Shown piece after piece: positions 31,101-56,452 of a DNA stretch of 64,000 bases (its first letter is position 1; every line of letters starts with the position of its first letter). The translations under genes and the position numbers were made by a program. Origin of the DNA: Candidatus Omnitrophota bacterium (GTDB lineage: Bacteria; Omnitrophota; Gorgyraeia; 2-01-FULL-45-10). The notes under the pieces were generated by a model. It was not told where the DNA came from and did not search any database. It worked only from the letters and a program-made list of their open reading frames with translations. The stretch spans positions 51,991 to 115,990 of the forward strand of contig PLNN01000019.1 in NCBI GenBank assembly GCA_003142795.1. Direction: 5' to 3'.

Positions 31101-34100
31101 GAGCGGGAAAAAATTGATTGCAAAGCAGGCGGATGAATATCTGATAGGTCCAAGAGGCGGGAAACATCGCACCATACGCCTTTATAAGCACGACTTGAAT
31201 TTAAGGTGGATATTTGATATGCCTTCTGACAGCTCCGGACGCCGGATAATTTTTAGCGACAATAACATAGGGTCTGTCCAAGGAAAGGGTGAAGGCAGCG
31301 TAAGTATGTATTACGATCCTCTAGAGAAAGCCGTCCTGATCAACATGGAGAGCATGGTATCTAATGGGCCGTCACAAGATAGTGTTGGCGTACTTCGAGA
31401 GGCCGGATGGGATTTAGCGCGCATAAAAATACCCATAGATGAAAATGGCATAGCGAAAGAAGTTATCCATGAACGCGAATTTATGGGGATTTCGCGTTCA
31501 GGCATCGCGATTCTTTTAAAACATGCGGGGGTAGATACAAAATTTAAAGATATTTACGCATTAGTTAAGCAGGAGTTAGTTCTTCGCGAAGTAGATAAGT
31601 TTGCTGAGGAGCAGGAAGCTCAAGATACCAAGACACTGTCAATAGATCCTATGAATAAGGTAGATGATTTCTTAAGAGATCCTGAGGCTTTTGGTGTTTT
31701 TGAGAATTTGCGGGGTGACATAAAAAAGATAGAAGATATAATTATATTCGCAAAACCATGGGAATTGAAACAATATGCCTTAGAACGTCTTAAAGGGCTT
31801 GTTAATAAAGGATATTACGGTAGAGATGAGTATTTTGAACTTGCGACCTACGCCGCTGAAAAAGACGGCCTTGAAGAAATGGCCTATATAGAGAGAACGA
31901 TAAGGCAAGATAAGTCTTTTCTTACCGATATGGGTATAGATGCCGCCAGGGTAGACAGCATTACTTTACATTGGCGCGCCCGCGGCCTTACCAAAGCCAT
32001 ATATCACGTGACAATAAACATGGACGACGGTACGGAGCGCATTTTTGCCATAAGCCTTATGAGGCCGCTCTATTCGCAATTAGGGTTTTCGATGGAAGAG
32101 ATCGAGAAGTCATTGGATCTCTGGTCAAAGATGAGCGAGGCAGGCGTAGACTACGTGCCCCACTTTTATGCCGTAAGGCGGATTAACGATTATCGGCCGA
32201 AATTATTCGATAAAGAACTGCCGGTGCATACGACGCCGGGACCTACGATAGTTTCCAACACTATCAATCCGGCAAAGATCATGTACAATGACTTATTGAT
32301 AATAGCAAGAGAGTTCGTTCAGGGCTATGACATGCCCGGATATTGCACACATTGTTGTACTACGCATCAGGAAGAGAGGGATGTATATGTCGCCGGAATA
32401 AGCGCGTACTTCCGGATGTGGAAAGAGGGCAAAAAAACTGTTGCCGACACAGGGCGAGCTCTATTAAATCCCGATCCGCGCAATGTTGTTGTGCATCCCG
32501 AAGGCAATAATTACCATGGCGTTGTTACCGATCTAAATGGTTTGCGGGAAGGGGTCGGCCTGGAGGAACTTTTAACATCATTGCAAAAAACAGGTTATGA
32601 AAAAAAGGACGTCCTGGCTGCCGCGCGGCAGACGCTCGATGGGGCAGAGTATGAATTTGCGAAACAATATTATAGAACAGGCGAGCATCCGGATTTTAAG
32701 GCTGTGTGTACAGAAGCCCTTACACGCGAGAGCATCCAAAAATTAGTTGCCGGAATATTAAAGAATCCGGCCAGGTTAAATAAAGAGGAGCAGGTAATCT
32801 CCCCCAAAAAAGTGAAATTTGCGCTTGACAGCATCTTCCACATCGTAGGAAGAAGTACGAATGATCTATCCGGCGAAGATAGGCGTTTAATACTCTCAAA
32901 GATAAAAAGACTTATTCGCCAGGGATTTCCAAATAAAATAAGATATTTTCGCATGAGAGAAAGCCAGCAACCGGTCGCTGAGATGCTATGTGCATTCGCA
33001 AAAGAAAATACGCACTATCTTGTAGAGGGGTTCCTTAATGATGAAGGGTTTTCTTCCGCAGGGAATAGTTTGGCGCGGGAAGGACACCTGCGCAGAGTGA
33101 TATTACGTCAGATGCTTAGGGAACTTTATCCGAAAGGGGACAAAGCCGATAACATAGAAAAGACTCTATTAGGCCCGGATTTACTGTTTCGCGAAGCCCT
33201 TAGTAACTACGCGTGGAAATGTCGTATCAGGACCGCCATGGAAGACCATGTGCTGTGCCGAAACCTGGTGACCTATCAGAAATCTCGCGACAAAGACGTG
33301 GCCAGGCGCGCCGCGGCAGAATATGTAGAGACTATTTATATGATAATGAAGAAAGAGATGGATGAAGACGGAAGGGTGTTTGGTAGTAGCGAAGAATTGA
33401 TCGATTATCTAAGGACACATTTCGGCGTAAGAAAATTTATTATCGCCGGCGGCAAGGGCACAAGATTCTCCCCCGGTGGTCTTATCCTAAAGCCTCGTTT
33501 TAAACCAGACAACTATAACACCAATATAAAACTCTCCAGGGAATCATCGGCTTTCGGAACGCTTGAAGACGTGATAGTCGTTGACGCCACCACCGTGTTT
33601 TACATACTTAAAGACAAGTGTCCCATAGCTGCATCTATAAAGAGTGGAATACGCGATAGGATAAGCAGCGAGATTTCAAAACTTGTGGATGCAGGTGTTA
33701 TAGATAGCCGAAAAGGGGCGGATTTATCAAGCGCTATACGCAGGATAGTCGATGAAGAGATGCATTACACTCGCAGGCCCGATGGTCTATGGGACCTATC
33801 CATGGTGTTGCGCTCCATAGAAGAAAAGGCAGGCGAGAAAGACTTGAAGAGCCATCTGGTCATTGATAAGATAGCGTACGCGATATTTAAGACAATAATG
33901 GATGACAAGACGCTGATAGATAAAAGTAAGATAGACGAGCTCTTTGGCAGAAATTGCATTGTGGTGTTGGACTCAGGGGAAGGGCACGGAGGCGCTTATG
34001 CTGAAGCATTGTCCGAACTTGAGACTAGCGGTAAATTGCAAGAAGCGCGCTATTCGGTCATAGTGTATGCCGATTCACCCGGATGGGGGCTCGATAGGTA

Positions 34101-37100
34101 TCCCAATTACGTCTTTACGTCTTACCTTGCCACGGTGAACCTTCTTTCTCCGAAAGTGAATGACTTACCGAAAGTTACCATAGCGGTAAAAAACCCGAAA
34201 GACGGCAGGGCTGAAGGACGCGCTCGCGTTTTTACCGAATACACCGAAAAATTTGCCAATACACCTATAGGACTTAAGGAATGGGCAGACATGTCTCCCG
34301 CAGAAAGAGCCGAATCTATCGATATGGCAAGGCAACACGACCAGAGATGGCTTACAAATGCCAATATTCTTATCTATGATACGATGTGGGCCGCAAAGAG
34401 ACGCGGTGTTCTCTATGAGCGCTATCGTCACGAACTCGGAGAAGCCGGCGAGCACAAACAAAGATCTTATGAGTATTGGGCTAGCGATTATTTAAATATT
34501 GCCGCCGCTGAATATGAAGAAACAGCGAAAGAAAACCCGGATGCTTCGCCTATGACACGTCTTGTGTATGTCGGAGAGAGCGCTCCGGACGCATTGAAGA
34601 CCCTACCGACGGCTCTAAATTATAGAGATGATCGCCAAGACATGATAATAAAAAAGATAAGGGCGATGGGAGTCGTTGTTGATCCTGATGTGACGATATC
34701 GATATCCAGCGATGATATGGGTGCGGCAAGTTTTGATCTGTGCAGAGCTATCGATTCTATTTTTGGGGACAATCGTGAAGACGCACCTGGATCCGGTCCA
34801 ATAAGACTTAAGGGCACCATACATCTTAGCGATACCGTAGTTGTCAAAAAAGGAGCTACTTTGGATGGCACCAAAAAAGACATTTCGCTGACAGGCAAGT
34901 GCGTTGTTGAAAGAGGCGTGGAGCTGGGTGGTGTTATCGCAGAAAATGAGCTCTTTACCAACAGCCGCCCATACGAACAGGAAAATGTTTACCTGACAGG
35001 GTTTCCGTTTTCGAGCCAGAGCACCGTTGAATCTGTCCCGGTTACCGGAATAGATTTCAGGGCTATGGGTATTATTGTAAACGATTCCACAAGAGTATGG
35101 ATCGCAAAAAAGGATAAAGATAGAAGTGACCTCGAGATCCTCAAAAACATTTTCGGAAACGACACAGACGGCCACAGGGTGACAGACCAGATATTTTTAT
35201 ATGGCGATATTGTTCTGGATGAAAACGTCAGGGTTGAAAATGGAACTATGTTGGACGGACGGCGTAATAGAGTAATTCTTACCGGTAAGACCCACGTAGG
35301 TAAAGGCGTAAATTTAAAAGGCGTCAAGGCGGAAGACACGGTGTTTGCCGGCATCGATTATCTCGATGTCTACCATTACAGGCAACCGGCACACGACTCT
35401 ATTATCGAGATCAATAATTCTCTTTTTGTTAATTCTTACATAGAGTTCGGCGCCAAGGTGCGTAACTCTATGGCAATAAATTCCTGCGTTATGACAGAAG
35501 CGCTAATAGCCGAATCCGACATTTTAGGAGAAATCGTTGTCCCAGGTAATGATATTACAAATCGCCGGTTAAAAGACATGGTTAATACCGTATCTCTGTC
35601 TGTCGAAATAGGAGATAGGATCGAAAAGGATTATGTGCCCGGGCCATTCCGCCTCGAAGAATTATCTCCGGAAGATCAGGTGGGCATAAGAGAAGGTTAT
35701 CAAAAAGTTGCCGCATATTTTTATGAAAGGATTATCCCAGTTAGATCGGTAAGGAAAAGATTGATCGAAGATACACAAAAGTTCTTATACAGTGATGTTA
35801 CGGCCAAGCTTACAATAGAACAGCTGAAGCAATATATATTCGCCAAGGCAAGGGAAAATATCAGAAGATACGGCTCAAAAAGCAATGAGGCGGAAAGGCC
35901 TGCGCGGCTTGCGGCAGTTATCAGGGCACATTTGCAGCCGGTAATGGAAGAAGCGCATAGCGTGGACATGGGAAATGCGCCGGTCGCCAGGAACACGTTT
36001 CGCAGACTGGCCATATTGAGCGCCAGGTTCAATTTTGTGGACTATTCTATAAATCCGGAAATTTTCGACACCGGCCATCTGGATGCGGCTGCAAAAAACC
36101 CCGAAAAAGATTTTACGCTTCTGGATCAATTTGCCGAAAAAGAACTTGCCATTGACGGTCTGAATAAATTTGAGGAGATGGTCTTTGGCAGCCGCAAAGG
36201 AACGTTCTTATATCTCACTGATAATATAGGAGAGACCGAAGCTGACGCGCCGATGTGGGAATTTCTGGTCAGGATGGGGCACACCGTAGTTATCGGTGCC
36301 AAAGATGAATTTTGCTTTGGAGACATCGACGTTGAGGGAGTAGAAAAGATAATAGCTGACCATCCATCTCTTTCGGAATACGAGAAAAGCGGGGGAATAA
36401 GAGTTATTAAGACCGGTTCTGCGAGCGAGGGTGTATTCGCCCATAGTTTTAGCCATGAAGTGCAGGAAGTCTTAAAAGATAAATCTCTCATAGCGTTAAT
36501 TTCTAAAGGTCAGGCCAACATATTCAGTCTATCCGCCCGGAACAACATGAAAATGCCGGTAGTAGCTATGCTTGTGTCAAAGTCTATTACAGCAAAGAGG
36601 ATCACCGGTATCGCGCCCAAAGTTGTCGGCGACAAAACGACATTTTGGCCCGTCATCGCCGTGATCCCGGCAGGGAGCCATATAATGGACTGTAAAGGGC
36701 CGAGCCAATTCGAGGGAACGCTTCAAAGGTTTGGCACCGTTCGTGACGAGCTGGTTTCCGGGGAAAGGTCGAGTTTCATCGTAGGTTTACCGAAAGGCAC
36801 ACCAAAAAAAATTGCGAGCATGGTAGAAACGGCGGTCAATGCCTCCCCGCTTCTCGGCAAAACGGCAAAAATAGAAGTATTCAGCGAAGGAGCAGAAGAG
36901 TTCGATGAAATGTTGGCAAAGGAAAGGACGAACGGTGTTTATCTTGACGAAAGCGTTTTGAGCCAGCTGGCTGCTCAACAAGATGCCCAGGACTTGATCA
37001 ATTCTGTGAGCGTCACCGTTTCAAGTATACTTATAGATTCCAGGACGCGCGAGGATCTGGAAAATATTTTGATCGAAATCGAGCAGAATATTGAAGCGAT

Positions 37101-37842
37101 CAAGAAATGCGACATCGACGAAGATAAAGCAAAATTGGAAGAGCTAATGAATAAGCATTCTAGCTACATAAAAGATCTCAAGTTGCTCATCTCCCGTAGA
37201 AAGCAAATAATAGAAAAGGCCTACAACAGTAATATTGATAGAATAGTGAGAGAGGCTACATCGTATGACAACAAGATAGCGGTGGCGACCACCGAAACTG
37301 TGGCCGGGTTCGATCCGTTCACATTCGACAACATAGGGAAAGCTGCGGCTCAAGGCATCGTAAACTATTTTATTTTTGGCGATATATTAAAAAGTCCCGA
37401 AGAGGCTGAAGCTTTTGTGAAGGCCTGCGGATACGAAGGCGATATGGCCGCTATACGATTCATAGACAAAAGAGGCCTTTCGTACAGGGAGTTAGCCGCC
37501 AGAATAGCCGCAGAAACTAACTTGCCCATGGAGAAAATAGGCATAAGGGCCGCTGCGGGCGAGCTTGAACTTCCGAAAAACGGGGAAGAAGCCGTACCTG
37601 GCGTATTATTAGAAGTACAGGCCAAGGGAGATATCTATTTAGCGATGAATTCCTACCAGGCACTGCTTAAGATACTAACACAACTAAAAGAAGGCGCTAC
37701 TCTTGAAGAGATTAAGATATCCGGCGTGGAAAAGACTGGTCGAAGGGGCGTATTCAATTATTCACCTCGAATAGATTACGATAAAGATATGAAAGATTAT
37801 AGAAATGCCATTGGGCTAATTTTGGTACGGACAAATGCGTAG
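28147..37842 (+). CDS. Giant secreted or anchored multidomain protein (3231 aa): N-terminal conserved domain, sugar-nucleotidyltransferase-like segment and left-handed beta-helix
   Basis: Uninterrupted ORF. The N-terminal KKKWICLIAIILTCTFIPQNIAYSQD reads as a signal peptide or anchor. It is paralogous to ORF3 over the N-terminal ~430 aa and over the NTP-transferase motif. Confidence 0.8.
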   Translation: MNFEGLVKSKSVKNELTSKCLFTGWQSHRKKKWICLIAIILTCTFIPQNIAYSQDAAPIWSKEQNGNGDVRIPKEIAVIKESYAASNGKTVINIQDAHASLGAQESIVAALDFLVANYDLKLVAIEGSSGYIDTSLLKTFPNERMRRSAAEYLMKQGKMSAGEFFSITSNKPIALYGIEDKPLYTENVEQFRKIYEINESAGKDIKKMLEVLRSLKGKIYSDDLKALDEDADLHINGKISFSARWKLTRDLAARYGIDYKKYDNLAKLIRSFDLEKGINFEKANKERSLLINELSKKLPKDRLEQVILKSASFSAHKIAQGEYYAYLQRLVRENGIDPSPYSNLIAYTDYAALYESVDILAVFEEIKDLEGRIQSKLFKNEDQKKLYEFSQYIGQLKDLFELKLTNVDFKCISENGKESNAREISKFVKDAAVKYNVKIDNKENDLAGTFRNIPIALEFYKTAEKRNSAMLANTIKRMSAEGQRMAALITGGYHTKGLTERLKENKTSYFVLLPTFDPSKGERPYAAILTNKKQSYESFLDTGKYYLATSALLEGADLTKFEEAFGHILEQTIDEIKTKVSDPGEIETRLLSSIHSWVENRESFLKANPPPGEFRPIRSEEFEKYLLRLSGKLLSKPEKWEEKDRDTKGENAGHAREIIEDLIKQGKVVEVFLAKDHLVAYRVRWIYDYKPGQIQERDNVFEEEIKVNQLFTTVQQNHMISWIRVHPINRGAIRLPHFRVILDDVSLRWTDHIETSNICHAGHRDGVIYIGERLLTSMFDYASDPVRNLVLDQDEYQHLLDPNFVCTVDKKVLKKRLRAVNERIKDILSKPPSIAKYKLKVCTTHDEAIAKHSGINPDNGNIRWGNFRPRMNPYITDRIGPITVSAGLYIIKSKGGPSLETADTNMKIWVEGKDEPGKWNEIKMDMIYAKDLGGGIAFSFVGTLPAFFKGKYTFRYSVDGGKNWQWANNGPGDDRVIIRQEALQQSGKKLIAKQADEYLIGPRGGKHRTIRLYKHDLNLRWIFDMPSDSSGRRIIFSDNNIGSVQGKGEGSVSMYYDPLEKAVLINMESMVSNGPSQDSVGVLREAGWDLARIKIPIDENGIAKEVIHEREFMGISRSGIAILLKHAGVDTKFKDIYALVKQELVLREVDKFAEEQEAQDTKTLSIDPMNKVDDFLRDPEAFGVFENLRGDIKKIEDIIIFAKPWELKQYALERLKGLVNKGYYGRDEYFELATYAAEKDGLEEMAYIERTIRQDKSFLTDMGIDAARVDSITLHWRARGLTKAIYHVTINMDDGTERIFAISLMRPLYSQLGFSMEEIEKSLDLWSKMSEAGVDYVPHFYAVRRINDYRPKLFDKELPVHTTPGPTIVSNTINPAKIMYNDLLIIAREFVQGYDMPGYCTHCCTTHQEERDVYVAGISAYFRMWKEGKKTVADTGRALLNPDPRNVVVHPEGNNYHGVVTDLNGLREGVGLEELLTSLQKTGYEKKDVLAAARQTLDGAEYEFAKQYYRTGEHPDFKAVCTEALTRESIQKLVAGILKNPARLNKEEQVISPKKVKFALDSIFHIVGRSTNDLSGEDRRLILSKIKRLIRQGFPNKIRYFRMRESQQPVAEMLCAFAKENTHYLVEGFLNDEGFSSAGNSLAREGHLRRVILRQMLRELYPKGDKADNIEKTLLGPDLLFREALSNYAWKCRIRTAMEDHVLCRNLVTYQKSRDKDVARRAAAEYVETIYMIMKKEMDEDGRVFGSSEELIDYLRTHFGVRKFIIAGGKGTRFSPGGLILKPRFKPDNYNTNIKLSRESSAFGTLEDVIVVDATTVFYILKDKCPIAASIKSGIRDRISSEISKLVDAGVIDSRKGADLSSAIRRIVDEEMHYTRRPDGLWDLSMVLRSIEEKAGEKDLKSHLVIDKIAYAIFKTIMDDKTLIDKSKIDELFGRNCIVVLDSGEGHGGAYAEALSELETSGKLQEARYSVIVYADSPGWGLDRYPNYVFTSYLATVNLLSPKVNDLPKVTIAVKNPKDGRAEGRARVFTEYTEKFANTPIGLKEWADMSPAERAESIDMARQHDQRWLTNANILIYDTMWAAKRRGVLYERYRHELGEAGEHKQRSYEYWASDYLNIAAAEYEETAKENPDASPMTRLVYVGESAPDALKTLPTALNYRDDRQDMIIKKIRAMGVVVDPDVTISISSDDMGAASFDLCRAIDSIFGDNREDAPGSGPIRLKGTIHLSDTVVVKKGATLDGTKKDISLTGKCVVERGVELGGVIAENELFTNSRPYEQENVYLTGFPFSSQSTVESVPVTGIDFRAMGIIVNDSTRVWIAKKDKDRSDLEILKNIFGNDTDGHRVTDQIFLYGDIVLDENVRVENGTMLDGRRNRVILTGKTHVGKGVNLKGVKAEDTVFAGIDYLDVYHYRQPAHDSIIEINNSLFVNSYIEFGAKVRNSMAINSCVMTEALIAESDILGEIVVPGNDITNRRLKDMVNTVSLSVEIGDRIEKDYVPGPFRLEELSPEDQVGIREGYQKVAAYFYERIIPVRSVRKRLIEDTQKFLYSDVTAKLTIEQLKQYIFAKARENIRRYGSKSNEAERPARLAAVIRAHLQPVMEEAHSVDMGNAPVARNTFRRLAILSARFNFVDYSINPEIFDTGHLDAAAKNPEKDFTLLDQFAEKELAIDGLNKFEEMVFGSRKGTFLYLTDNIGETEADAPMWEFLVRMGHTVVIGAKDEFCFGDIDVEGVEKIIADHPSLSEYEKSGGIRVIKTGSASEGVFAHSFSHEVQEVLKDKSLIALISKGQANIFSLSARNNMKMPVVAMLVSKSITAKRITGIAPKVVGDKTTFWPVIAVIPAGSHIMDCKGPSQFEGTLQRFGTVRDELVSGERSSFIVGLPKGTPKKIASMVETAVNASPLLGKTAKIEVFSEGAEEFDEMLAKERTNGVYLDESVLSQLAAQQDAQDLINSVSVTVSSILIDSRTREDLENILIEIEQNIEAIKKCDIDEDKAKLEELMNKHSSYIKDLKLLISRRKQIIEKAYNSNIDRIVREATSYDNKIAVATTETVAGFDPFTFDNIGKAAAQGIVNYFIFGDILKSPEEAEAFVKACGYEGDMAAIRFIDKRGLSYRELAARIAAETNLPMEKIGIRAAAGELELPKNGEEAVPGVLLEVQAKGDIYLAMNSYQALLKILTQLKEGATLEEIKISGVEKTGRRGVFNYSPRIDYDKDMKDYRNAIGLILVRTNA
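28415..29700 (+). other. Conserved N-terminal domain shared by ORF2 and ORF3, possibly a TraB/GumN/Tiki-like fold
   Basis: ORF2 has INIQDAHASLGAQ...AIEGSSGYIDTS...ERNSAMLANTIKRM...ALITGGYHTKGLTERLKE. ORF3 has IHIQDAHCNYEAQ...SVEGADGFVDTA...VLITGGFHTTGISKILEG. The C-terminal RN...GG.H.G motif resembles the TraB/GumN GaaHLxG motif. The fold assignment is tentative. Confidence 0.35.
33439..33474 (+). other. Sugar-phosphate nucleotidyltransferase glycine-rich motif (IIAGGKGTRFSP) in ORF2
   Basis: Matches the GGxGTR(L/F)xP signature of ManC, GalU and RmlA-type NTP-transferases. Confidence 0.5.
34800..35540 (+). other. Left-handed beta-helix (hexapeptide-repeat) region in ORF2
   Basis: Successive [LIV]-G-x-x-x-x hexads: IRLKGTIHLSDTVVVKKGATLDGTKKDISLTGKCVVERGVELGGVIAEN and VRVENGTMLDGRRNRVILTGKTHVGKGVNLKGVKAED. 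Confidence 0.5.
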
Positions 37843-37957
37843 CTTATTAAGCTATAAAAAAGTTAGATTTTATGGATTGACAAGATTTTCAATTATGGTA
37901 TAGTTTATATACTATAATTAAAGCGATAAAAAGTCATTAATGATAGTTATCCACAAA

Positions 37958-37983
37958 GTAGTGGACGTTTAAACGTCCACTAC
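37958..37983 (+). promoter_or_regulatory. Perfect 26-bp palindrome (gtagtggacgtttaaacgtccactac) 18 nt upstream of the ORF3 start, a candidate operator or RNA hairpin
   Basis: gtagtggacgttt is the exact reverse complement of aaacgtccactac and the site is centred on tttaaa. It lies between the AT-rich promoter-like region (TTGACA 37877-37882, TATAAT 37913-37918) and the RBS aaggagag at 37988-37995. There is no downstream U-tract. Confidence 0.55.
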
Positions 37984-38000
37984 AACTAAGGAGAGTATAA

Positions 38001-41000: not shown

Positions 41001-44000
41001 GAAGTCGCGGCGATGCGCGAAATACAACGCCAAAGTTTCGTGGAAGGAACTTATAGAATAGCCACGGCCAAGGAGCTTGGGTTTACGGAATTGGGCGATT
41101 TCCGGTTTGTCGTGCATTACGGCCTCGAAGCCAGGATAGAGAAATATAATAAAGAGCACGGAACGAACCTTAAGACCGACAGGATCGACGCAGGCACAGG
41201 CGGCGAGGAATACGGTTATGGGCTCAGGCAGGCGCATATAAGCGCATATCGCTTTAATTCTCTGATCAGAACGAAATCCGGCAAAAGAGTGCTGGAAGTA
41301 ATAGCCACTCACGAATCTTTGGGCCACATCGCGATCGCGAATAAAGAAGGCGGCTCAGCTGCCTATAAAATGAAGCTTGCCGACCCGGCCATGAACGAAG
41401 AGGATGTCGTGGACTTTCATGTCCCCGGAGCTAATACAAGATGTGCATACGACTGGCTTCCAGGCAACATTACCATACGGCAGTTATTAGCGCAGATAGA
41501 TGAAAGCCGCAAAAACGATGAATTATACCAGATGGAAGAAGGGCTTCTCACCGATACCGCTTATGGTACAGCCGCTCGTGACGAGATAGTAAGACTGAGA
41601 AAAGAAGGCAAGGATTATGAGGCAGGCGAATTTGCAAAGTTAGTTTACGCAAGAAGAGCCAATATCGACAGGATGAAGAAAGTGCTTACAGAGCCTTATA
41701 AAGATTATGACGTCATCATCATAAGCTCTACAACCGAAGCTGAAGCAAAAGACCAGGAAGCTAATCTCAGGAAAATTTTCGGCGGCATCAAGACATCGAA
41801 CAATGCGATGGGTAACAAGGTGTGCGTCCTCTCTATGCTTGACACTTCGGAAGGTAACAACCTGATAGGGCAAAATGTTACAGAGGCCGAGGCAATAGAG
41901 GCGTTTAAGAAATGGGCAACCGAGAACGGCTTACCGGAAACGGACCTTACTAAGCTCCAGGCCGAAAAAAAGGTAAAAGTGGCAACATATCATAACGGCG
42001 GCAAGGCCGAGAGATTTTCTCCGGCCGGCCAGGCATTGAACCTGTCAAGGGCAGACCAGCTGCTTGTTGGAAGCGTCTTTGACATGAATGGCAAACCTAT
42101 AGAATTAAATCTTCTTTTGACCGTCATTCTATCCACTGCATTTAACGCTGAAACGAACGATGGATCGATGCACGATGTGTATTGGGCGAACCAGGCAGAA
42201 GTTGGCGCAGTGTTGAGTGTGATCAGGCATGGATACGTCTTTAACAAATTTGCAGTTGCGGTGCCGGCAAATCCCAGCATGAAAGACCTGTATGATTACG
42301 GGACGTTGATCGCGACAAAAGATGGCCGTATACTGAAGTTCCTCGGCAATAAGAAACTTACCGAGAAAAATAGTGCCGGCAGGTATATCCCAACCTCAGA
42401 TCCATACTGGCGTGCTAAATATGACGAGCTGATGGAGGCCGCCAAAGAGGGCAGGGCATATTTTGATTACGGTTCATTCAGCATGAGCTTAGATATGCAG
42501 AATGCTCTTCTCGAATATTGGCGCGACGTTAAAAAAATATTTACTGTTATGCAGAATGATGTAAATGGCAGAGCAGGTATATCGCGCGAGATCGATCCTC
42601 AGATGACCCAGAATATTGTTCCGATAGTAAATGGTGTAATGGGCCATGAGGCTGAGCTAAGTCAGCTTCCGACTATCACAGAATTGGATTCAGCTGCTGA
42701 TAAGAACGCGATTTTGCACAAAGCCTATCTTGCATTATTAAATATAATGGCTCCCGAATACAAAACCATATTAGAAGGTCTATATACGAAAGCAAAAGAG
42801 GATTTAGTAAAAAAGGAAAAAAAGGAGCCCGGGAAGAAAGATAACGATCAGAATCTCCAGGCTATATACGAAACGATCGAATTTTTCATCAGATACAAAG
42901 ATACTGTTAATTTAATGAAAGGATTTGGTATAATAGATTTCGGGCCCGGCAGCCATTGGTTCGCATATAAGAGGCTGCTCGATATGGGTAACGAGAAATT
43001 CTTTATGTTGGCCGATATGACCGGGCAGAGCATGGAACTCGAGCCCAATGGTAATGATCTACGTGCGACCGCGACTGTCCAGGATAAGGTAAAGGCTGAA
43101 GATGCCCGCAGGCTAAGGAGTATACCAAACAGCGCTGTCTGCGTATTTGAGGTGAACGGGCAAAAGGTAACGCTTAGCGCCGGGCAGGCGGCTAAAGGGT
43201 GGGAAGGCCATGGCGTTAAAGTAAAGGGCTCTATTATACAAGGGAATACCGTTCTTCTGCCCGGCTCAGAGATCGTAAATAGCGGCGTCAATAATTCCCA
43301 GGGCCGGATAGCGGCTGCAAATTCATATATAGATTCATCGACCGCCCCGAAAATAGAGGCTAAGAATAGCATTGTAGTAAACGGCGTTGATGGAAAACTT
43401 ATTATCGCGAATAGCGAAATTGTAACCGACGCGTTCAGGCCGGTTATACATGACGACAGGTTCGCGGACGGGCATACGAGGATGCGAGCGCCCGTAGGAT
43501 ACGATCCTAAGCCGGGCGATGAAGCCCTGGCGGCCAAAATGTCGGATGCCGTCAGGTTCGGCGATAACAAATATTCATTTGAGGAGATCAGGAATATGTC
43601 GTGCGACAAGGACGCGAACAAGGCGATCGAGAAGACGGCAAGAGATAGTGTACATGCGAGGCTCCAAATGATATCCGAACGCTGCAAATATTGTATAGAT
43701 CATTTCAAGCTGTTGAAATTCGGAACAAGCGGATTGAGAGACAATGACTCCGCTCTTACCGATATGGAGGTATATATAAACGTCCGCGGCCTTGTGAGAT
43801 ATCTTACCGGCATCAACTCGAGGATGGACGTGCCGGACCATATTAAGAAACTGGTATATGAAGGAGCTATTCAAAAATTGTCCGACATAGTGCTTGCAGG
43901 AGATCTCAGGCCGTCCACCCCCCGGATTTTAAAAGCAGTCGCAGTTGGTATAGTAGCGGAAGGCGGCGCGCCTGTATATATAGGAAAACAGCCAACGCCC

Positions 44001-47000
44001 CTGCAAGTTCTCTACTCATTGAAGAAATCAATGGCAGGATTCATGACTACAGGCAGTCATATCCCGCTCGGTATGAACGGCCTTAAAGGTAACAGGCCAA
44101 ACGGTGAGTTGTTAAAACAAGAAGAGAAACTCATCCTGACGGAAGTCGCCAAAGTGAGAAACGGGGAATATCTTCAAACCGATGCCGAAAGCATGTTCGA
44201 TAGGAACGGATTTTTCAGGACGGACGGCAAGATTTCCGGAAACCAGCGCAATATCATTTCGAAAGCCGAAGAAGCCCTTGATCCGGAGAATCCGAATAGA
44301 CGCGAAGCGGAGAAACTATACGAAGACCGTTATTTAGGCGGTCTGGGAAGGTGCCTCGAGGGCGTCGACGTTCTCTTCTGGCAGCATTCTGCGGTTGGCC
44401 GCGATATCATTCCCGATATTATGAGAAAGATGGGAGCCAACATTACGACCGTTGCGCCTCTCGATGTGAGTAAAGGCGAATTCTGCTCACTAGATACGGA
44501 AGATGTTAAGCCGCAATTCAAGCAGCTGGTAAAGAAATTGATGCAAGATAATAATAAGAAGGTCCTTATCACAACCGATGGCGATTCCGATAGGCCCGCC
44601 GTATTTATACTGGCGAAGAATCCTTTTAAGAATGGCGAGGAAGACGTTTATTATTTAACCGGAGATAAGCTCGCTATAATTACGGCGTTGTTATTGAAGC
44701 CCAAGTTCTTTGCGATACCGGTTACGTCAAACCATATAGCTCTGCAGAAATTACGTGATGCGGTCCCCGGCATTAAAATAGAGCTTACAGATGTAGGCTC
44801 TCCTTATATTGCCGAGGCTATGTATGCGAATAACGAAGGCGATCAGGCCAATGGCTGCGAGGTCAATGGAGGATATTTCATAGGGTCTCAGGTATTCAGG
44901 ATGCCCGAAGAAACAATAGCGAAAATAAGGGCATTGAACAGGAGCTCCTCTTCTCCGCTCGCTGAGCCCACCGGCGAATTTTCATATCTTCCTTCGCGGG
45001 ACGCGTCAATCGCGTTAATAAGCATACTGCTTTCGGCGAAACTGAAGAATATGACGGTCGAGGAGTTGATAAGGGACACGTTCAGCGGAAAATACGCGGC
45101 TGAGACATCGGCCGGGCTCGTTGAGAACGTATCCGATAAGCAGCGCACGCCCGGATGCGAAGATTACCAGAAAGAGATGGGACCTGCAATAGCGAAGAAC
45201 CTTTCTCCGAAAAACGCAAATATACTCGAGGTGATATTTGAGGGAGATGAAGTAAGGTATGTGCTTAAAGACGATGCCTCAGGAAAAAAACGCGATGCCG
45301 ACAAGCCGTTGAAGGCAGAGGCATTGGCTATAAAGTCACGGCTTGAGGCGAGATTGAAAACTATAGCCGGCTTGCAGGGCCAAAATATCGTACAGATCAA
45401 TTTTAAAAACGGCGTTCGTGTATTCTGGTCGAACAGGGAAACTATACATTTACGAGCGTCCAGCAACGCGGCGCAGTTCAGGGGATATACCCTGGCACCC
45501 GGCGAGATGTTCGATCCCCGGCCGGAGCAGATGGTTGAAGAGATGACCGCGCCAAGCACCGGGCCGCTCGTTAAAATAATTCAAGATTATATAAATGAAA
45601 CTACCGGCAAAGCTGTCTCTACTGCCGCGGCATCGGCCTCGTCTTCCAGGAAATCGCCCGGCAGGTTCGCGACATCGGCAGACGCGCCGCAGGGCGGACA
45701 CTTGCGCGAGCTAGTTGCTATCGGTACAAAATACTCGCTTGATTCGGTCGATCCCGACCTGATAGATAGAGAGATCGCCAACGGAGCCACCAGTGCTACG
45801 TCTAATCCTATTATAATATCGAACCTTGTCAAAAAAGTGCTTGCGAATATCGAGAAGAACGGCGGTCCGCAGACTGAATTCGAGAAAGGAATTTATTCGA
45901 TCCTCGCAAAATCTCCCAATGAGGAAGTCGCGACCAGAGAAGCGACCAAATTTATCATAGGTTTCGTCGCGGCAAAATTCAGGCCCGTTTATGACAGAAC
46001 AAGCAAGAATGACGGATATGTAAGCATTGAAGTCGATCCTCGGCTAGAGGACACGAAAGAAGGCCCGTATGCAACATGGACGCATGAAGAGCGGGTGGCC
46101 GAAGTTAAGCGTCAAGCCGTCGAATTCAGCAAGATCGCGCCTAATATCCTGATAAAGATACCTGCTACTAAAGCCGGACTTGACGCCCTGGAAGATCTCG
46201 CCTATCAAGGCATAAACCTTAACGTTACTCTTATATTTACGCCTGAACAGGCTTATGCGGCAAGAGAGAATGTATGGAAAGGCCTCCAAAGAAGAAAAGC
46301 TGAAGGGAAGTCCTTAGACATAAAGAGTGTTTATAGCATCTTTGTCAGCCGGACCGATGATTATACGGCTAAGAAAGCCCCGGATCTGCCTTCAAATGTT
46401 CAGGGAGAGATTGGAATATACATCGCGAAGCTCATATATCTTCAGAATAAAGAATTCTGGCAGGATAAAGGACTTTCCTTGAGCCAGGAAATGATATTTG
46501 CTTCTACCGGCAGTAAATCAAAATTGGTAGCCGGGATCAAGACCGAAGCGGATGTTTTAAAACTAGTCGAATTAGCGACATCCGGATCCAAGGAAGCAGA
46601 AGATGCGATGAATGCATTAAAAGAAATGTGTAGATATGTCTATGAACTTGCAGGAGACGATATTCAGACCAATCCGCCCCTGACAGCATTTGCCGTGAAT
46701 GTCGCACCATTTGCGATAACCGAAAAAAGAGTAGGTGCATTACCTGCTTCCGAAGTTCGGAAGATAATGATACAATATTTAGATTCTCACATGCAGGAAC
46801 TTTATGAGGCACTAATGACTGATGGCATTGCGAAATTCGTGAATCCGCAAGTTGAGTTGGTAAAGAACGTTGCAGCGGCTATGGCAAAAATTCCGAGATC
46901 GCCTGCCGCAACTCCGGAGAATATCGTGAAAACGCTCGTAGATAATCGTAATCCTCAGGCTGCTGTGGCCGGCATATTCGATAATCGCCAGGAGAGTGAA

Positions 47001-50000
47001 TATCTGCCTGCCCTGAGTGCAGTCGCTAATGAATTGAATAAGCGCTACGCAACTCTTACGTCCGATCAGAGGGATGAGCTTTGGCCGGTATTAGAAGAGT
47101 TTTATTCTACCCTGACCAGACGAGCGTGGAGCACCGTAAATGACGTAAATATAGCACGCGGCCTTCAGATAATGACCGGCAATACCATTGCCATTCAGAA
47201 TCTGATCGAGATAGGCCTGAGCGGAGCAAAGAGTATACAACTTACCGATAAGGCCGACGAGATGTTGAAAGCCGAAGATAAAGATAGAGGGCCAAGCTAC
47301 ATTAAAGCTTTTTCTATTCCTAAATCAATAGGCATTGCCGAAAGCGAAGGCCGCCCGGGTGTTTATTGGAGAGGCGCCGAAGGCATTACAAAACTGGGAC
47401 CCAATGGCGAAAATATATTGCCGTGGGCCGCATACGCAGCGAATCAGCATGATGAATATAAGAAATTCATAGGTTATACTATGCTTCATGTGAGCGATTT
47501 TCACGTTACTGTGTTTGTAAATCAATTTCTTCCAAATTCGATCCAATATACGAGCACGGGCGCAGGCCACTATCAGGGAGATAAACTTGATGTAAAAGTT
47601 GTTACAAGAGGTGCCCTTCGCCAGATGCAGGACGTATATAATGCAACCGGCAATCGGACAACAACGACAGCGCAGGATGCAGGAAAAGGTAGATGGGTAT
47701 TTGCATCTCCGCGCACAGTCGACTATACCGTTCCGCTTAGGCCAATAACGGTATTCAATGATGAAAGCATATTACCGCTGGGTACAAATATGCGCGCAAT
47801 CGGACCTGAAACAGTGCAGGTTGCTCCTTACGCGACTATTGATTTCAATGGTAAGCCTGTATTGGTCAAAGCTGTCAGCGACGCTCCCGTGTTAACGCAA
47901 CTGGAATCATATCCCGACCGTAGCGCCGTCCTGACTAGAGCGCCGGTACAAATAGCAGAATCGGAAAGGGTAACTGTTTTGGATGCGAACACAGTAACAG
48001 CTATAGGAAGGTTGAATGATCTTATCGAATCCGGACACCCGCTTAATATCACATCAACATATAATTTAGGAAAGAACGGTTACAAGTGGGGCGAGCCAGC
48101 CGGAGTGAGTTTCATAATCGGGCTTGAAAGTAATACTCTGCCAGCCGTCCTGCAGGAAGCCATCAGCACCAAAGACCGCGTTGCCGAAAGATTGATAGCC
48201 GCAGGCGTGATAGACTTGGGTGAAGGCTATAGCCTTCCGACGAGCGTATTGTCATCGTATTTTGGCCAGGAGCCTGAAATTACAACTAAGGTGCTTGCTT
48301 CAGCGATGCCTCTGTCTGTGCAACTGCATACTTTTGCCGAGATGATAATCCCTCTCGAAAAAGGGACTGCATGGATAGGGGTCAAAGAGAATGTCACAGC
48401 CGAACAATTAATAGAAGCGGCTAAAGAAGGCAGGATCCAGGATGTTCTGCAGGAAGTTGAGCTTGAGACGGGAGTGCCGATGATCGTTCCTGCTTATCTG
48501 CCGCATGCTTACGGAAAAGTGAGGGTCTATGAGGTTAAGGCAGTTACGCCTCAAGAAGACGCTACCGGCACAACCTCATTCTTTGACAGGCTGAAATATT
48601 TAAGCCCTGAATTTGAAGCTCAATTGAAGGCTTTGAACATTACATCGTTACAGATGACTCCGGAGCAGTTAAGACAGCTCAATCCCGGAAGAGAGAAGAA
48701 AGACGTTCTTACGATGCCTGAAGCAACTTTGGCCGAGACGAAGAAACGATTGGCTGAGGCCGAAAGCTCAGGCGCTTTGAATAAAACGAATATCGAGAAT
48801 TTGAAGTTTACACCGGTCATTGTGAGCGCGCCATCCATGAAGAATACCGAAGAGGCGAGGCTTGAGGTAATGGGCGTGGCAGAAGGACGTTTTATAACGG
48901 TCCGTTATACGGTTGCGGAGAATCAGTCGATCCAGTCGGGCCCGATTCTATCCGGCAGAAAGCACACGCTTTTTGTATCAGAAGGCGAGATCGAATTAAA
49001 TACCGATCAGGGCGTTACTACAACATTGAAAAGAGGCCAGGATATAACTGTGACGCCTAATATGCAGTATTACACCATCAGGTCACTGAAAGGCACGGCC
49101 GTTATTTATACACAGGTTCCGCCGAAGAAAGAATTGCCCGCAACTGAAACCGCGAGGCTTGCAGCGCAGATCAATAATAATCAGAAAAGCCTGAAGGCTG
49201 CCGTATCGAAAGGAAGAGAGGTCATTCTCGCCCCGAACGACAGGACCTCCGAAAGATTATCTGTTACAAGCAGCGCGAAACAGGATATCCCGCAGGCGAA
49301 AGAGAAAGAGGTGGCCTTATCGCTCGAAGACGGCAAAGCGGCTATCGTTAAAGAGAATGGCGATACGGTAGAATTAAAGCCTGGTAATCCCATAATCGTT
49401 CCGGCAGGCATGCCGTTATCGATACAGTCACCGGTTGTGGCGATAGTGAAAATTGCTTATACGGAATCTCGTGAAGAGAGCGCTTCATTTACGTCCATTA
49501 ATGTCACAAAGCGTAATCTCGCGGCGATCACAGCCACAGGTAAGATAGACCTGCTGGTTAACGACAGCCTTTACCAGAAGGACGGCGACTATGCCAATTC
49601 TGTCGCAAAAGAGCAGGAATTCTGGAAGGGGTTGAACGTCGACGTCGTATTGGTAAAATATAGCGATGAGCTTGGATTGAGCGACGCGGCCGATAAGTCG
49701 ATCAGGAACGGCGCTATTCCCATTTTGGTCGGAACGGCAGAAAATTTCCAGAAGGCGGATGTTTCTGATCCAAAGATAGCGAAATTGTTGTTGAAGGCAA
49801 AGATATTGCCTCCAATCGATCTGGCGAAGATAGAAGGTCGCCGCGGCTGGTTCTTTACAAGAGAAATAGAAGCCAGCGCGATCCTTTTGGCTGCTACAAC
49901 CGTCCAGAATATACGAGATCATGATCCGATAGCGGAAGACCTGCAGAAATTGATGCAGAAATTCGGTTTGCCGATAGACGACATCAACCAGCTCTTATGC

Positions 50001-50177
50001 ACGATGTCTTTCGAGGAATTGCAGAAGCTGGGAAGCGATTTCCTCGATGCGAATGGCATGCCTAGCCTGTTAGCGAAGATAGAACTGGTAAAACGGCTAT
50101 TGATAACGCTGCCTGCTAAACCATTCAATGCCGACGACGATCTTCACAGGCGCCGCGAAGTTCTCTGGAGCGTGTAA
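38001..50177 (+). CDS. Giant secreted multidomain protein (4058 aa): N-terminal conserved domain, NTP-transferase-like motif, LbH, phosphohexomutase domain, transaldolase domain and cupin-like segments
   Basis: Uninterrupted ORF with a strong RBS (aaggagag, 6-nt spacer, ATG 38001). The N-terminal signal-peptide-like segment is [22 protein letters not shown]. The embedded enzyme domains are listed as separate features. Confidence 0.85.
   Translation: [4058 protein letters not shown]
38225..39515 (+). other. Conserved N-terminal domain, paralogue of ORF2 28415-29700
   Basis: See the ORF2 domain feature. Protein identity across the domain is about 30-35% by eye. Confidence 0.35.
41987..42031 (+). 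other. Degenerate NTP-transferase glycine-rich motif ([15 protein letters not shown]) in ORF3
   Basis: Aligns with ORF2 IIAGGKGTRFSPGG but has GKAER in place of GxGTR. Confidence 0.3.
43200..43440 (+). other. Hexapeptide-repeat (LbH) segment in ORF3
   Basis: [70 protein letters not shown]. Confidence 0.4.
43700..45520 (+). other. Complete alpha-D-phosphohexomutase (PGM/PMM superfamily) domain embedded in ORF3
   Basis: It has the N-terminal [10 protein letters not shown] motif, the catalytic-serine loop [11 protein letters not shown] (equivalent to TASHNP), the metal loop TTDGDSDRP (DGDxDR) and the phosphate-binding loop [15 protein letters not shown] (RxSGTEPxxRxY-like). It is collinear with the free-standing paralogue at 58964-60622. 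Confidence 0.8.
45700..46560 (+). other. Complete transaldolase-family domain embedded in ORF3
   Basis: It is collinear with E. coli TalB. [13 protein letters not shown] aligns with [28 protein letters not shown] aligns with [57 protein letters not shown] aligns with [40 protein letters not shown], with the Schiff-base Lys conserved. [11 protein letters not shown] aligns with ISPFVGRILDW. Confidence 0.8.
48900..49450 (+). other. Cupin-like segments in ORF3, possibly mannose-6-phosphate isomerase type II-like
   Basis: [57 protein letters not shown] and [34 protein letters not shown] have the G(X)5HXH...E...G...P.G..H...N shape. No strict motif was verified. Confidence 0.3.
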
Positions 50178-50196
50178 TCTATACGAGGTTATAACT

Positions 50197-53529: not shown

Positions 53530-53538
53530 AATAAGATT

Positions 53539-53580
53539 TTGATTTTTTAGTATGATTTTAGTATAATAATCATACTTTTT
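53539..53580 (+). promoter_or_regulatory. Near-consensus sigma-70 promoter (TTGATT-17-TATAAT) overlapping an inverted repeat and T-tract (agtatgatt/aatcatact, then tttt)
   Basis: The -35 TTGATT is at 53539-53544 and the -10 TATAAT at 53562-53567, with an exact 17-bp spacer. The -10 sits in the loop of a 9-bp AT-rich inverted repeat (53549-53576) followed by TTTT. This could act as a promoter for 53619, a weak terminator for 52501, or both. Confidence 0.45.
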
Positions 53581-53618
53581 GTTAGATTAGAACCAAAATT
53601 TTAGAAAGGGAAACAGCA

Positions 53619-55468: not shown

Positions 55469-55499
55469 GATATAGGGACCGGTAGCCAGAGGATAACGG

Positions 55500-56411: not shown

Positions 56412-56423
56412 TAAGCCCCTTCA

Positions 56424-56452
56424 TTGACAGGCAGTTATGGAAGTGCTATAAT
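56424..56452 (+). promoter_or_regulatory. Consensus sigma-70 promoter with extended -10 (TTGACA-17-TGcTATAAT) upstream of the GH130 gene
   Basis: TTGACA 56424-56429, TATAAT 56447-56452, exact 17-bp spacer, TG at 56444-56445. RBS agagagga precedes ATG 56511. Confidence 0.7.

Follow-up and report, generated by a model that had tools for sequence, protein, structure and literature searches.

Does this locus encode a fused set of enzymes that converts hexose phosphates to sugar nucleotides, as the initial annotation proposed? The window, i.e. the whole stretch of 64,000 nucleotides analysed here, contains two genes for giant proteins, ORF2 (28147..37842, 3231 aa) and ORF3 (38001..50177, 4058 aa), which like all features given below as coordinate ranges lie on the + strand. 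ORF2 is identical to database protein P0121 from metagenome scaffold WOOD18-1_SAMN07125087_METAG-scaffold_48, and the host of both proteins (~3,200 and ~4,000 residues) is an uncultured Omnitrophota bacterium. Judged from their sequences, both belong to an Omnitrophota-specific family of proteins of 2,200-5,600 aa, in whose predicted architecture a short hydrophobic signal at the N-terminus and a conserved N-terminal domain of ~500 aa are combined with shuffled glycolytic and sugar-phosphate/sugar-nucleotide modules. The family-defining N-terminal domain, of unknown fold, was located at aa 68-560 of ORF2 (28348..29826) and aa 55-545 of ORF3 (38163..39635), with 34% identity between the two copies. 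All 120 listed relatives carried the ORF3 version (~45-60% identity).

The nucleotidyltransferase motif of GGxGTRL type reported for ORF2 was found exactly at window position 33439. Across the four large ORFs, 17,313 aa in total, the pattern GG.G.R matches nowhere but at this G-loop, IIAGGKGTRFSP (aa 1765-1776, 33439-33474). The loop belongs to a predicted GlmU-like sugar-1-phosphate nucleotidyltransferase with a helical arm and a beta-helix region (aa 1750-2500, 33394..35646) that also contains the motifs VYADSPGW (34063-34086), NAN (34351-34371) and EYWASD (34471-34488). The structural neighbour GlmU (N-acetylglucosamine-1-phosphate uridyltransferase / glucosamine-1-phosphate acetyltransferase) works on GlcNAc-1-P with UTP and shares 13-15% identity with ORF2, with no Pfam or PDB sequence match. 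Compared to GlmU, ORF2 has a helical insertion of ~100 residues after the second strand and an interrupted beta-helix region whose model is poor. The transferase model was of moderate quality (pLDDT 65) with a poorly modelled G-loop region, and the helix was confident for its first turns only, model residues 520-751 having pLDDT <50 and the second half being unreliable. Matches to the ORF2-type transferase numbered 30 among 1.8 billion representatives and occurred only inside giant proteins. Further downstream, ORF2 encodes an ARMT1-like (DUF89) damage-control sugar-phosphate phosphatase domain (aa 2561-2814, 35827..36588; PF01937, E 7.6e-13 for the whole protein and 3.6e-14 for the slice).

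The corresponding module of ORF3 (aa 1226-1885, 41676..43655) is predicted to be an FKP-type (GDP-fucose-pyrophosphorylase-like) nucleotidyltransferase followed by a left-handed beta-helix (LbH), which is clear in the model. Its G-loop YHNGGKAERFSP (aa 1330-1341, 41988-42023) is the counterpart of IIAGGKGTRFSP. In this loop the fourth glycine of the family consensus GGKGER(F/A)SP is replaced by alanine, while the spacing H1331-x-G-x4-R1338 matches that of His73/Gly75/Arg80 in FKP, residues that hold GTP (PMC11982464). Since G109 and R113 were invariant in 16 sequences and dN/dS was 0.11, the weaker motif of ORF3, suspected earlier to mark a pseudo-enzyme beside an active ORF2, is by these sequence criteria probably the normal motif of another transferase subfamily. 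Its best structural neighbour is found in L-fucokinase/GDP-fucose pyrophosphorylase from Bacteroides fragilis (FKP/GFPP, PDB 9IIS, 9IIT), whose N-terminal half, the GDP-L-fucose pyrophosphorylase (fucose-1-phosphate guanylyltransferase), uses fucose-1-P and not mannose-1-P. Identity is ~9-11% with no sequence-level match. Unlike FKP, ORF3 is without the fucokinase (GHMP) half, carries a helical insertion of ~130 residues (model residues ~290-410), and has its transferase fused 5' of a phosphomannomutase-type mutase in a 4058-aa protein.

The assignment of nucleotidyltransferase and LbH domains to both proteins thus held at the level of predicted folds, the LbH of ORF2 being confident for its first turns only. 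The domain scan itself, whose failure the initial annotation had named as its refutation, was silent for PF00483, PF00132 and PF01050 in ORF2 and ORF3, even with ten slices at E<=1. Transferase profiles A1 and A2 found no PDB sequence match, and profile-profile comparisons with known families were not significant (2.6-16% probability). Structure prediction rescued both putative transferase modules that Pfam missed, with a Foldseek probability of 1.0 against ADP-glucose and GDP-mannose pyrophosphorylases for the transferase fold, and the predicted folds place the evidence for the modules far beyond chance. The proposed ManC-type identity was rejected for both, as the folds were GlmU-like in ORF2 and FKP/GDP-fucose-pyrophosphorylase-like in ORF3 and neither matched PF00483.

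Directly following its transferase, ORF3 encodes an alpha-D-phosphohexomutase (PGM/PMM; aa 1900-2520, 43698..45560), in agreement with the initial annotation. It was recognized by Pfam (PF02878 6.3e-11, PF02879 3.5e-7) and matched PDB 4hjh, a Brucella phosphomannomutase, at 5.5e-35 with all four catalytic loops aligned, namely TGSHIP (44049-44066), DGDSDR (44577-44594), EVNGG (44859-44873) and RASSNA (45453-45470). The loop types TGSHIP..NGLK, TDGDxDRP, E.NGG and RASxNA are shared with 4HJH, whereas the ORF3 mutase is embedded in a giant protein, shows no detectable Pfam domain IV (PF00408), and differs far more from one close ortholog to another than the sequence on either side of it. A transaldolase follows (aa 2579-2955, 45735..46865; PF00923 E 4.8e-36, PDB transaldolases 2.6e-14) with the Schiff-base lysine motif LIKIPAT (46149-46169). 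The next block, of unknown fold and with invariant His/Asp positions (aa 2956-3345, 46866..48035), was present in 17 of the 120 listed relatives.

The cupin-like part of ORF3, below Pfam threshold (E 2.5e-4 to 6e-3), proved to belong to a predicted mannose-6-phosphate isomerase with a catalytic part and a C-terminal cupin (aa 3352-3715, 48054..49145). For a profile of this region built from 12 sequences the top 15 PDB matches were all mannose-6-phosphate isomerases (1zx5 4.3e-7, 2wfp 2.2e-5, 1pmi 4.4e-5), and the putative zinc ligands Q3441, H3443, E3447 and H3502 were invariant. The cupin fold proposed earlier therefore stood, but as class I (ManA-like) and not as the type II cupin of PF01050. 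Like the bifunctional ManC/CpsB-type PMI-GMP enzymes, with which the initial annotation compared the modules, ORF3 joins a nucleotidyltransferase for sugar-1-P to a mannose-6-phosphate isomerase of cupin fold in one polypeptide, but both PF00483 and the PF01050 type II cupin that make up those enzymes are absent, and its class I isomerase lies ~1,500 residues 3' of the transferase with mutase and transaldolase in between. A small extra cupin-like segment (aa 3767-3805, 49299..49415) stayed sub-threshold (PF21621 E 0.006, PF05899 E 0.0088), and a conserved C-terminal domain (aa 3860-4058, 49578..50174) is common to 54-55 of the 120 listed relatives.

From sequences and structural models we consider the modules real but highly diverged, and probably serving the conversion of sugar phosphates to activated sugars. 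We regard it as slightly more probable than not that ORF2 and ORF3 are Omnitrophota-specific multi-module giants whose modules are active on one chain in this conversion. By sequence or fold, ORF3 contributes, in this order, an FKP-type guanylyltransferase-like module with beta-helix, a phosphomannomutase-type mutase, transaldolase, unknown domain and class I isomerase, and ORF2 a GlmU-like nucleotidyltransferase with beta-helix and the ARMT1-like phosphatase. Because mutase, class I isomerase and guanylyltransferase-like module were all identified, the three steps from fructose-6-phosphate to GDP-hexose probably reside on the ORF3 chain. The isomerase would convert fructose-6-P to mannose-6-P, the mutase would form mannose-1-P, and the transferase would yield GDP-hexose, while the transaldolase may supply or drain fructose-6-P. 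Mannose-1-P could also come from the GH130 phosphorylase operon next door, ORF2 may activate another sugar-1-phosphate, perhaps that of an amino sugar, and the activated sugars might feed glycan or coat synthesis. All reactions of the proposed pathway are reversible, and we infer substrates, flux direction and location. The earlier observation of a fused toolkit beside a mannoside operon was confirmed by the modules found, and its interpretation was partly supported.

Among the 120 listed relatives, the ORF3-type transferase lay upstream of the mutase in all 14 having both, mutase and isomerase occurred together in 18, and P0001 and P0004 had all three. In P0070, P0035 and P0037 the same slot directly 5' of the mutase is filled by a genuine PF00483 domain (1e-14 to 1e-23), and in other cases by UDPGP variants. 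The transferase-then-mutase adjacency is the most conserved within the family and points to a sugar-1-P that is activated and not solely degraded. It argues against a catabolic role, which we consider unlikely, in which mutase, isomerase and transaldolase would serve the neighbouring operon from mannose-1-P via mannose-6-P and fructose-6-P into the pentose-phosphate/glycolytic pool, with the nucleotidyltransferases as side branches or regulatory modules. Such a role would fit the mannoside catabolic operon directly downstream of the giants (GH130 mannoside phosphorylase, GH113 mannanase, MFS_2, a stand-alone PGM/PMM and ABC permeases), as had been noted before, and the PFK, PGK, PGI, FBA and GlpX modules of relatives. 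A scan of ten genes downstream turned up no stand-alone mannose-6-phosphate isomerase, and the window's only one therefore appears to be inside ORF3. The transaldolase ties to central carbon metabolism, but was found in only 1 of 120 listed relatives, and the operon has its own PGM/PMM. It is quite unlikely that the giants are instead exported to the periplasm, the surface or a host or prey cell and process sugar phosphates and nucleotides there. By hydropathy and reading of the sequence, ORF2, ORF3 and ORF4 each have a hydrophobic stretch of 13-14 residues, preceded by basic ones, as their sole membrane segment, and the N-terminus of ORF2 and ORF3, which looks like a Sec export signal, is what suggests the export considered in the initial annotation. 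With such a signal, enzymes that need NTPs would end up beyond the cytoplasm, a location difficult to square with biosynthesis, and NTPs and phosphorylated sugars, required by nucleotidyltransferases and phosphomutases, are not usually available outside cells. In a 2026 preprint, 9% of long Omnitrophota proteins are classed as signal-peptide-only and the multi-enzyme content of the largest is put on the outer face (10.64898/2026.06.07.730766). West-Roberts et al. predict an extracellular location for sugar-phosphate domains of this kind and suggest sugar pre-processing, but caution that overlooking a membrane segment might lead to a wrong location (10.1101/2023.11.21.568195).

Very improbable is a non-catalytic role in which the modules, with folds kept, would merely bind sugars or nucleotides or serve as building blocks of a large surface or coat protein. 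The extreme divergence, with Pfam silent on both transferases and the isomerase, the Gly to Ala exchange in ORF3, the large unannotated stretches flanking the modules, and the mosaic evolution of the mutase (36-56% identical to its closest ortholog versus 76-82% for its flanks) would agree with it. Against it, catalytic motifs are intact, and each module amenable to checking has retained its catalytic residues, namely the serine and metal loops of the mutase, the lysine of the transaldolase, all four zinc ligands of the isomerase and the Gly-loop Arg and Lys of the transferase. Recurrent pathway-consistent pairings would also be unexpected for scaffolds. Moreover, dN/dS to the closest relative was 0.08-0.16 for transferase, beta-helix, ARMT1-like (0.14) and transaldolase (0.08) modules, which places all measurable modules under purifying selection. 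That the GGxGxR strings are coincidental, leaving only mutase and transaldolase, is extremely improbable; the silent PF00483/PF00132 searches and unmatched A1 and A2 profiles are in line with it, but the predicted-structure matches of both transferases contradict it.

Sugar-metabolism domains in giant proteins of the same phylum ('Archaeovorins' and related) are already known from two preprints, West-Roberts et al. 2023 and the 2026 complete-genome study. Described there are long Omnitrophota proteins, predicted to be extracellular, with domains for triosephosphate isomerase, glucose-phosphate isomerase, FBPase, PGM/PMM and aldolase, as well as a Pfam module termed 'sugar metabolism' that includes PGM/PMM and ROK. 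The proteins treated in these preprints mostly measure 10,000-147,000 aa and have numerous membrane helices, in contrast to the single N-terminal hydrophobic stretch of ORF2 and ORF3. The searched passages of both preprints name neither modules for nucleotidyltransferase, mannose-6-phosphate isomerase or transaldolase nor the N-terminal domain common to the family or the pairing of transferase with mutase.

Against the proposed pathway, the adjacency to the mannoside operon was not seen to be conserved in a gene-neighbourhood comparison, the GFO/IDH gene being the only one to recur (in L003). The HAD-IIB phosphatase domains proposed for ORF1 and ORF4 fell below the PF08282 cut-off. The weak HAD-like candidate in ORF1 (aa 668-907, 2158..2877, E 0.0024) shows SDIEGT ... 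SGDNIRW. The HAD-IIB-like candidate in ORF4 (aa 234-505, 50827..51642, E 0.01) covers profile positions 2-230 of 255 and contains SDMDGT (50830-50847) and GDAFGANEND (51568-51597), both recognized by eye.

The window carried three very long plus-strand open reading frames in tandem, followed by a 772-aa ORF (ORF4) and a mannoside operon. ORF1 (157-27915, +) comprised 9252 aa within the window and 10,511 aa on the full contig, ORF2 (28147-37842, +) encoded 3231 aa and ORF3 (38001-50177, +) 4058 aa. The operon (52501-63157) encoded two GFO/IDH oxidoreductases, a xylose-isomerase-like TIM barrel, ABC permeases, a GH130 mannoside phosphorylase, an MFS_2 transporter, a PGM/PMM of its own and a GH113 mannanase, and thus bore out the mannoside operon that the initial annotation had placed beside the giant genes. 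The window sequence was identical to metagenome scaffold WOOD18-1_SAMN07125087_METAG-scaffold_48 (162.5 kb). Two loci of relatives, L003 (1-30365) and L004 (1-20181), likewise have kept their giant genes in tandem. In L004 the orthologs of ORF2 and ORF3 adjoined, and in L003 the ORF3 relative stood between a 4677-aa protein (GT2, NAGPA) and one of 3109 aa (ROK, Fe-ADH_2, SIS), with the giant genes followed by a GFO_IDH_MocA gene as in the window.

ORF2 and ORF3 belong to a protein family that is defined by an N-terminal domain of about 500 aa (28348-29826 in ORF2, 38163-39635 in ORF3). This domain was common to all 120 best relatives, contained the invariant motifs IQDAH..AQ, VEG..G and GG.H, and had no sequence relatives in Pfam or PDB. 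A Tiki/TraB/ChaN-like identity was considered for it as a guess and is not claimed here. Hundreds of Omnitrophota proteins of 2,200-5,600 aa shared it at about 45-60% identity, and the named relatives were all Candidatus Omnitrophota. Behind the N-terminal domain the relatives carried variable sets of PGM/PMM, PF00483, UDPGP, PFK, PGK, PGI and cupin-PGI domains, and further class II aldolase, GlpX, CofD, ROK, HAD and transaldolase domains.

The initial annotation had described a set of GDP-mannose-pathway-like modules fused into the giant proteins, among them ManC-type nucleotidyltransferases, and had proposed a Pfam scan as its own test. PF00483, PF00132 and PF01050 were absent from the whole proteins and, at E<=1, from ten slices. 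Pfam recognized only an ARMT1-like domain (7.6e-13) in ORF2, and in ORF3 only PGM_PMM I/II, a transaldolase (4.8e-36) and cupin matches below threshold. A ManC-type PMI-GMP, in which a PF01050 cupin lies C-terminal to PF00483, was not supported, neither domain being found in whole proteins or slices. By the terms of the annotation a negative scan counted as a refutation, and therefore homologs and structure were examined. With whole proteins and 24 slices Pfam likewise had no match to the transferases, to the beta-helices or to the N-terminal domain, and none in ORF2 aa 540-1760, ORF3 aa 540-1260 or ORF3 aa 2950-3360. Sequence and profile searches of PDB were empty for ORF2, the N-terminal domain and the block at ORF3 aa 2956-3345, and profiles of the ORF3 and ORF2 transferases retrieved only designed helical or TIM proteins. 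Hhalign probabilities were unusable both between the two transferase profiles (16%) and for the ORF3 and ORF2 profiles against PF00483-type modules of relatives (2.6% and 10%, respectively), despite G-loops in register in these comparisons. A count of beta-helix hexad periodicity gave the same result as shuffled sequences and was uninformative.

The strong G-loop motif noticed in ORF2 was readily located: IIAGGKGTRFSP occupies aa 1765-1776 (window 33439-33474), exactly at the start of the region described, and is the sole GG.G.R string across the four large ORFs. In a word-indexed database the body of ORF2 matched only itself and one 77% relative, and an exhaustive phmmer search of 1.8 billion representatives yielded 30 relatives of the module (aa 1750-2500), nearly all within proteins of 1,000-6,000 aa. 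Ten homologs shared the invariant residues G20, R24, K33, D227, N322 and E360, which map to GGKGTR...K, YADS, NA and EYWxTD. The module thus carries a nucleotidyltransferase signature, with a GGKGTRFSP...K loop and lysine and the acidic D227 after the central strand. Its AlphaFold2 model was of moderate confidence (pLDDT 65, residues 1-520 mostly 70-90) and showed a left-handed beta-helix behind a nucleotidyltransferase domain of alpha/beta fold. If 1fwy is, as we assume, a truncated GlmU consisting of the pyrophosphorylase domain, helical arm and first beta-helix turns, the ORF2 transferase and the start of its beta-helix are both matched. The proposed combination of transferase and left-handed beta-helix therefore held for the fold and the first part of the helix; the distal beta-helix region was poorly modelled. 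The module had no PF00483 match at E<=1 on slices and no real profile match in PDB.

The counterpart loop of ORF3, YHNGGKAERFSP (window 41988-42023), lies in a transferase module at aa 1226-1885 (window 41676-43655). The region from about aa 1000 to 1885 was common to 22 of the 120 best relatives, and an alignment of 16 sequences (45% mean column identity) gave the loop consensus YHNGGKGER(F/A)SP, with the loop Gly and Arg invariant. AlphaFold2 modelled this alignment confidently (pLDDT 88.8, pTM 0.88) as a Rossmann-like domain with a helical insertion, together with a series of short strands as is usual in left-handed beta-helices, in agreement with the beta-helix annotated in ORF3. Foldseek matched the model to ADP-glucose pyrophosphorylases, human GMPPA/B and VTC1 in PDB at a probability of about 1.0. 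The FKP enzyme combines an N1 transferase domain with an N2 beta-helix of three turns that bears a helical cap; its GTP is held by His73, Gly75, Ser78, Arg80 and Lys89, and its catalytic lysine is Lys187 (PMC11982464). The ORF3 module has this FKP-type fold, and its H1331-x-G1333-x4-R1338 is spaced as His73-x-Gly75-x2-Ser78-x-Arg80 of FKP, with the Ser78 position being Ala in ORF3 and Gly in the family consensus. At the sequence level no FKP match was seen, neither in Pfam, where PF07959 was sought, nor among the chains retrieved by the profile. By loop spacing and family consensus, the ORF3 motif, described as degenerate in the initial annotation, is probably the ordinary motif of another, guanylyltransferase-type subfamily, with Ala in ORF3 in place of one Gly.

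Directly after the transferase, ORF3 aa 1900-2520 (window 43698-45560) matched the Brucella phosphomannomutase 4hjh (5.5e-35). On the slice, PF02878 (6.3e-11) and PF02879 (3.5e-7) were above cut-off and PF02880 (0.0082) was below. The module showed the four-domain architecture of alpha-D-phosphohexomutases, and its four catalytic loops aligned to those of 4hjh (serine loop TGSHIP..NGLK, metal loop TDGDSDRP, sugar loop EVNGG, phosphate loop RASSNA), which confirmed the annotated phosphohexomutase. It was followed by a transaldolase (aa 2579-2955; PF00923, E 4.8e-36, 125 bits against a cut-off of 27) with the Schiff-base lysine motif ILIKIPATKAGLDALEDL, which we take to fit the PROSITE transaldolase active-site pattern.

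The supposed cupin of ORF3 could be retained as a module and was reassigned, without PF01050, to the class I mannose-6-phosphate isomerases. By eye aa 3430-3520 resembled these enzymes (K.L....LSVQLH.F.EM ... HAYG.V.VYEVKA ... GT.SF.DRL), and a profile of 12 sequences had top matches in PDB exclusively to mannose-6-phosphate isomerases (1zx5 4.3e-7, Salmonella ManA 2.2e-5, Candida 1pmi 4.4e-5, B. subtilis 1qwr 5e-5). LSxQxH (LSVQ.H) and HAY were in register in the alignments to 2wfp and 1zx5. The putative zinc ligands Q90, H92, E96 and H151 (profile numbering), the Gln, His, Glu and His set of class I isomerases, were invariant in all 12 sequences, with Glu a presumed ligand. The class I HMMs PF20511 and PF21621 gave no match above threshold (PF21621 E 0.0028-0.05; Cupin_2 2.5e-4), and weak cupin matches fell in the C-terminal part of the profile and at ORF3 aa 3767-3805. 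No stand-alone mannose-6-phosphate isomerase was detected in the ten downstream genes scanned, so the ORF3 module is the sole one seen in the window. Between transaldolase and isomerase lies a block of about 390 aa (aa 2956-3345, window 46866-48035) that was present in 17 of the 120 relatives and without detectable relatives in Pfam or in a PDB profile search. Its motifs RGPSY, YWRG.EG, STG.GH.Q and FND accompany invariant H208, H213, H235 and D242, and by sequence these His and Asp residues look like a metal site.

The modules recurred in combinations. Of the 120 best relatives, 57 carried the mutase, 29 the isomerase-like module, 22 the ORF3-type transferase and one the transaldolase. Wherever transferase and mutase shared a protein (14 of 14), the transferase lay upstream; the mutase was accompanied by the isomerase in 18 proteins, and two (P0001 and P0004) combined both with the transferase. 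Three other relatives (P0070, P0035, P0037) had a genuine PF00483 domain (1e-14 to 1e-23) at the corresponding position upstream of the mutase, which identifies this as a slot for sugar-1-P nucleotidyltransferases that different subfamilies occupy. When one genome per GTDB species was scanned for the motif, the ORF3-type module turned up in 18 loci, of which 15 were labelled Omnitrophota and three 'uncultured Planctomycetia' (L008, L009, L010). The latter may be mislabelled bins, since the remaining records were all Omnitrophota.

Comparison to the closest relative (L004, Nei-Gojobori) gave dN/dS values of 0.16 for the GlmU-like transferase, 0.15 for the ORF2 beta-helix region, 0.14 for the ARMT1-like domain, 0.11 for the FKP-like module, 0.08 for the transaldolase and 0.04-0.14 for the N-terminal domains. 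The mutase was left out because its synonymous sites were saturated and the module was mosaic between orthologs: it was only 36-56% identical to the L004 ortholog (10312-20181), whereas its flanks were 76-82% identical. ORF3 aa 784-1214 did not align to this ortholog at all. Together these differences suggest that modules of the giant genes have been replaced or have recombined.

The observations of the initial annotation were thus upheld and its interpretation in part. Its fused toolkit leading from sugar phosphate to sugar nucleotide is reflected in the folds, motifs, conservation and recurrent pairings observed here; that the modules are active and hand intermediates along the chain we infer. 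The simplest pathway for ORF3 would lead from fructose-6-P via mannose-6-P and mannose-1-P to a GDP-hexose; the transaldolase would tie this line to the pentose-phosphate pool, and mannose-1-P could come from the GH130 phosphorylase encoded nearby. A different sugar-1-P would be activated by ORF2, perhaps an amino sugar with UTP to judge by the modelled GlmU-like fold. Rival readings are that the line runs in the catabolic direction, that the proteins form a non-catalytic scaffold, or that the toolkit is extracytoplasmic or delivered.

This last reading touches the main point at issue, the location. ORF2, ORF3 and ORF4 each have one N-terminal hydrophobic stretch of 13-14 residues after basic residues and no other membrane segment, which from its sequence looks like a cleavable signal. 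If this signal is real, NTP-dependent enzymes are placed outside the cytoplasm. We consider it improbable that the signals are functional and that a full sugar-activation line of isomerase, mutase, guanylyltransferase-like and GlmU-like transferases and phosphatases crosses the cytoplasmic membrane, so that synthesis or consumption of nucleotide sugars would take place in the periplasm, on the cell surface, or within a host or prey cell to which the bacterium is attached and from which it draws NTPs and sugar phosphates. If true, this would represent extracytoplasmic or trans-cellular nucleotide-sugar metabolism, which to our knowledge is not known in bacteria. The answer to the paradox of NTP-dependent enzymes behind an apparent export signal would decide between tethered multi-enzyme lines building coat glycans and metabolic enzymes deployed outside the cell.

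The giant proteins of the Omnitrophota pose an acknowledged puzzle. In the passages available, 'Archaeovorins' of this phylum are described with triosephosphate isomerase, glucose-phosphate isomerase, FBPase, PGM/PMM and aldolase domains that were predicted to be extracellular, with caution about topology (West-Roberts et al., 10.1101/2023.11.21.568195), and a 2026 preprint reports a 'sugar metabolism' Pfam module with PGM/PMM and ROK as well as giants with a signal peptide only (10.64898/2026.06.07.730766). In the passages searched, neither of these two preprints refers to modules of the nucleotidyltransferase, mannose-6-phosphate isomerase or transaldolase type or to the family with the shared N-terminal domain. 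Judged by these passages, sugar-metabolism domains in Omnitrophota giants were already known; new details are the individual modules, the subfamilies to which they belong and an architecture consistent with a pathway. Published surveys depend on Pfam and are blind to three modules that fold-level analysis revealed here, namely a class I mannose-6-phosphate isomerase and two new, deeply diverged subfamilies of nucleotidyltransferases, one GlmU-like and the other FKP-like. With pathway-matching combinations of transferase beside mutase and mutase with isomerase, vague 'sugar metabolism domains' become a specific hypothesis in which one polypeptide would lead from fructose-6-P to GDP-hexose. Unlike Archaeovorins, which have many membrane segments and HEAT, TPR and GT domains, ORF2 and ORF3 lack further membrane segments and had no Pfam match to HEAT, TPR or GT domains. 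ORF1 is closer to the Archaeovorin type in its full length, its at least 20 hydrophobic segments and its TPR and HEAT repeats; its first 4,700 aa also showed CofD-like and methyltransferase matches, and its last 4,652 aa had zero Pfam matches.

Additional candidate activities were seen in the array. ORF2 encodes an ARMT1-like (DUF89) damage-control phosphatase (window 35827-36588), predicted to be a further sugar-phosphate-directed activity on the chain of the GlmU-like module. At ORF2 aa ~1320-1560 (window 32100-32800), where Pfam was silent, LLNPDPRNVVVH and VVTDLNGL by eye recall catalytic and DFG-like loops and resemble aminoglycoside- or sugar-kinase-like folds. PF08282 (HAD-IIB) scored 16-18 bits on ORF1 and ORF4 against a cut-off of 20.9; ORF1 has DIEGT with the second Asp changed to Glu, and ORF4 has SDMDGT, ITG and GDAFGANEND. 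As mechanically called, ORF4 shares 50 nt with the 3' end of ORF3 (window 50128-50197), and Met24 (window 50197) is the likelier start because the hydrophobic signal-like segment begins after it.
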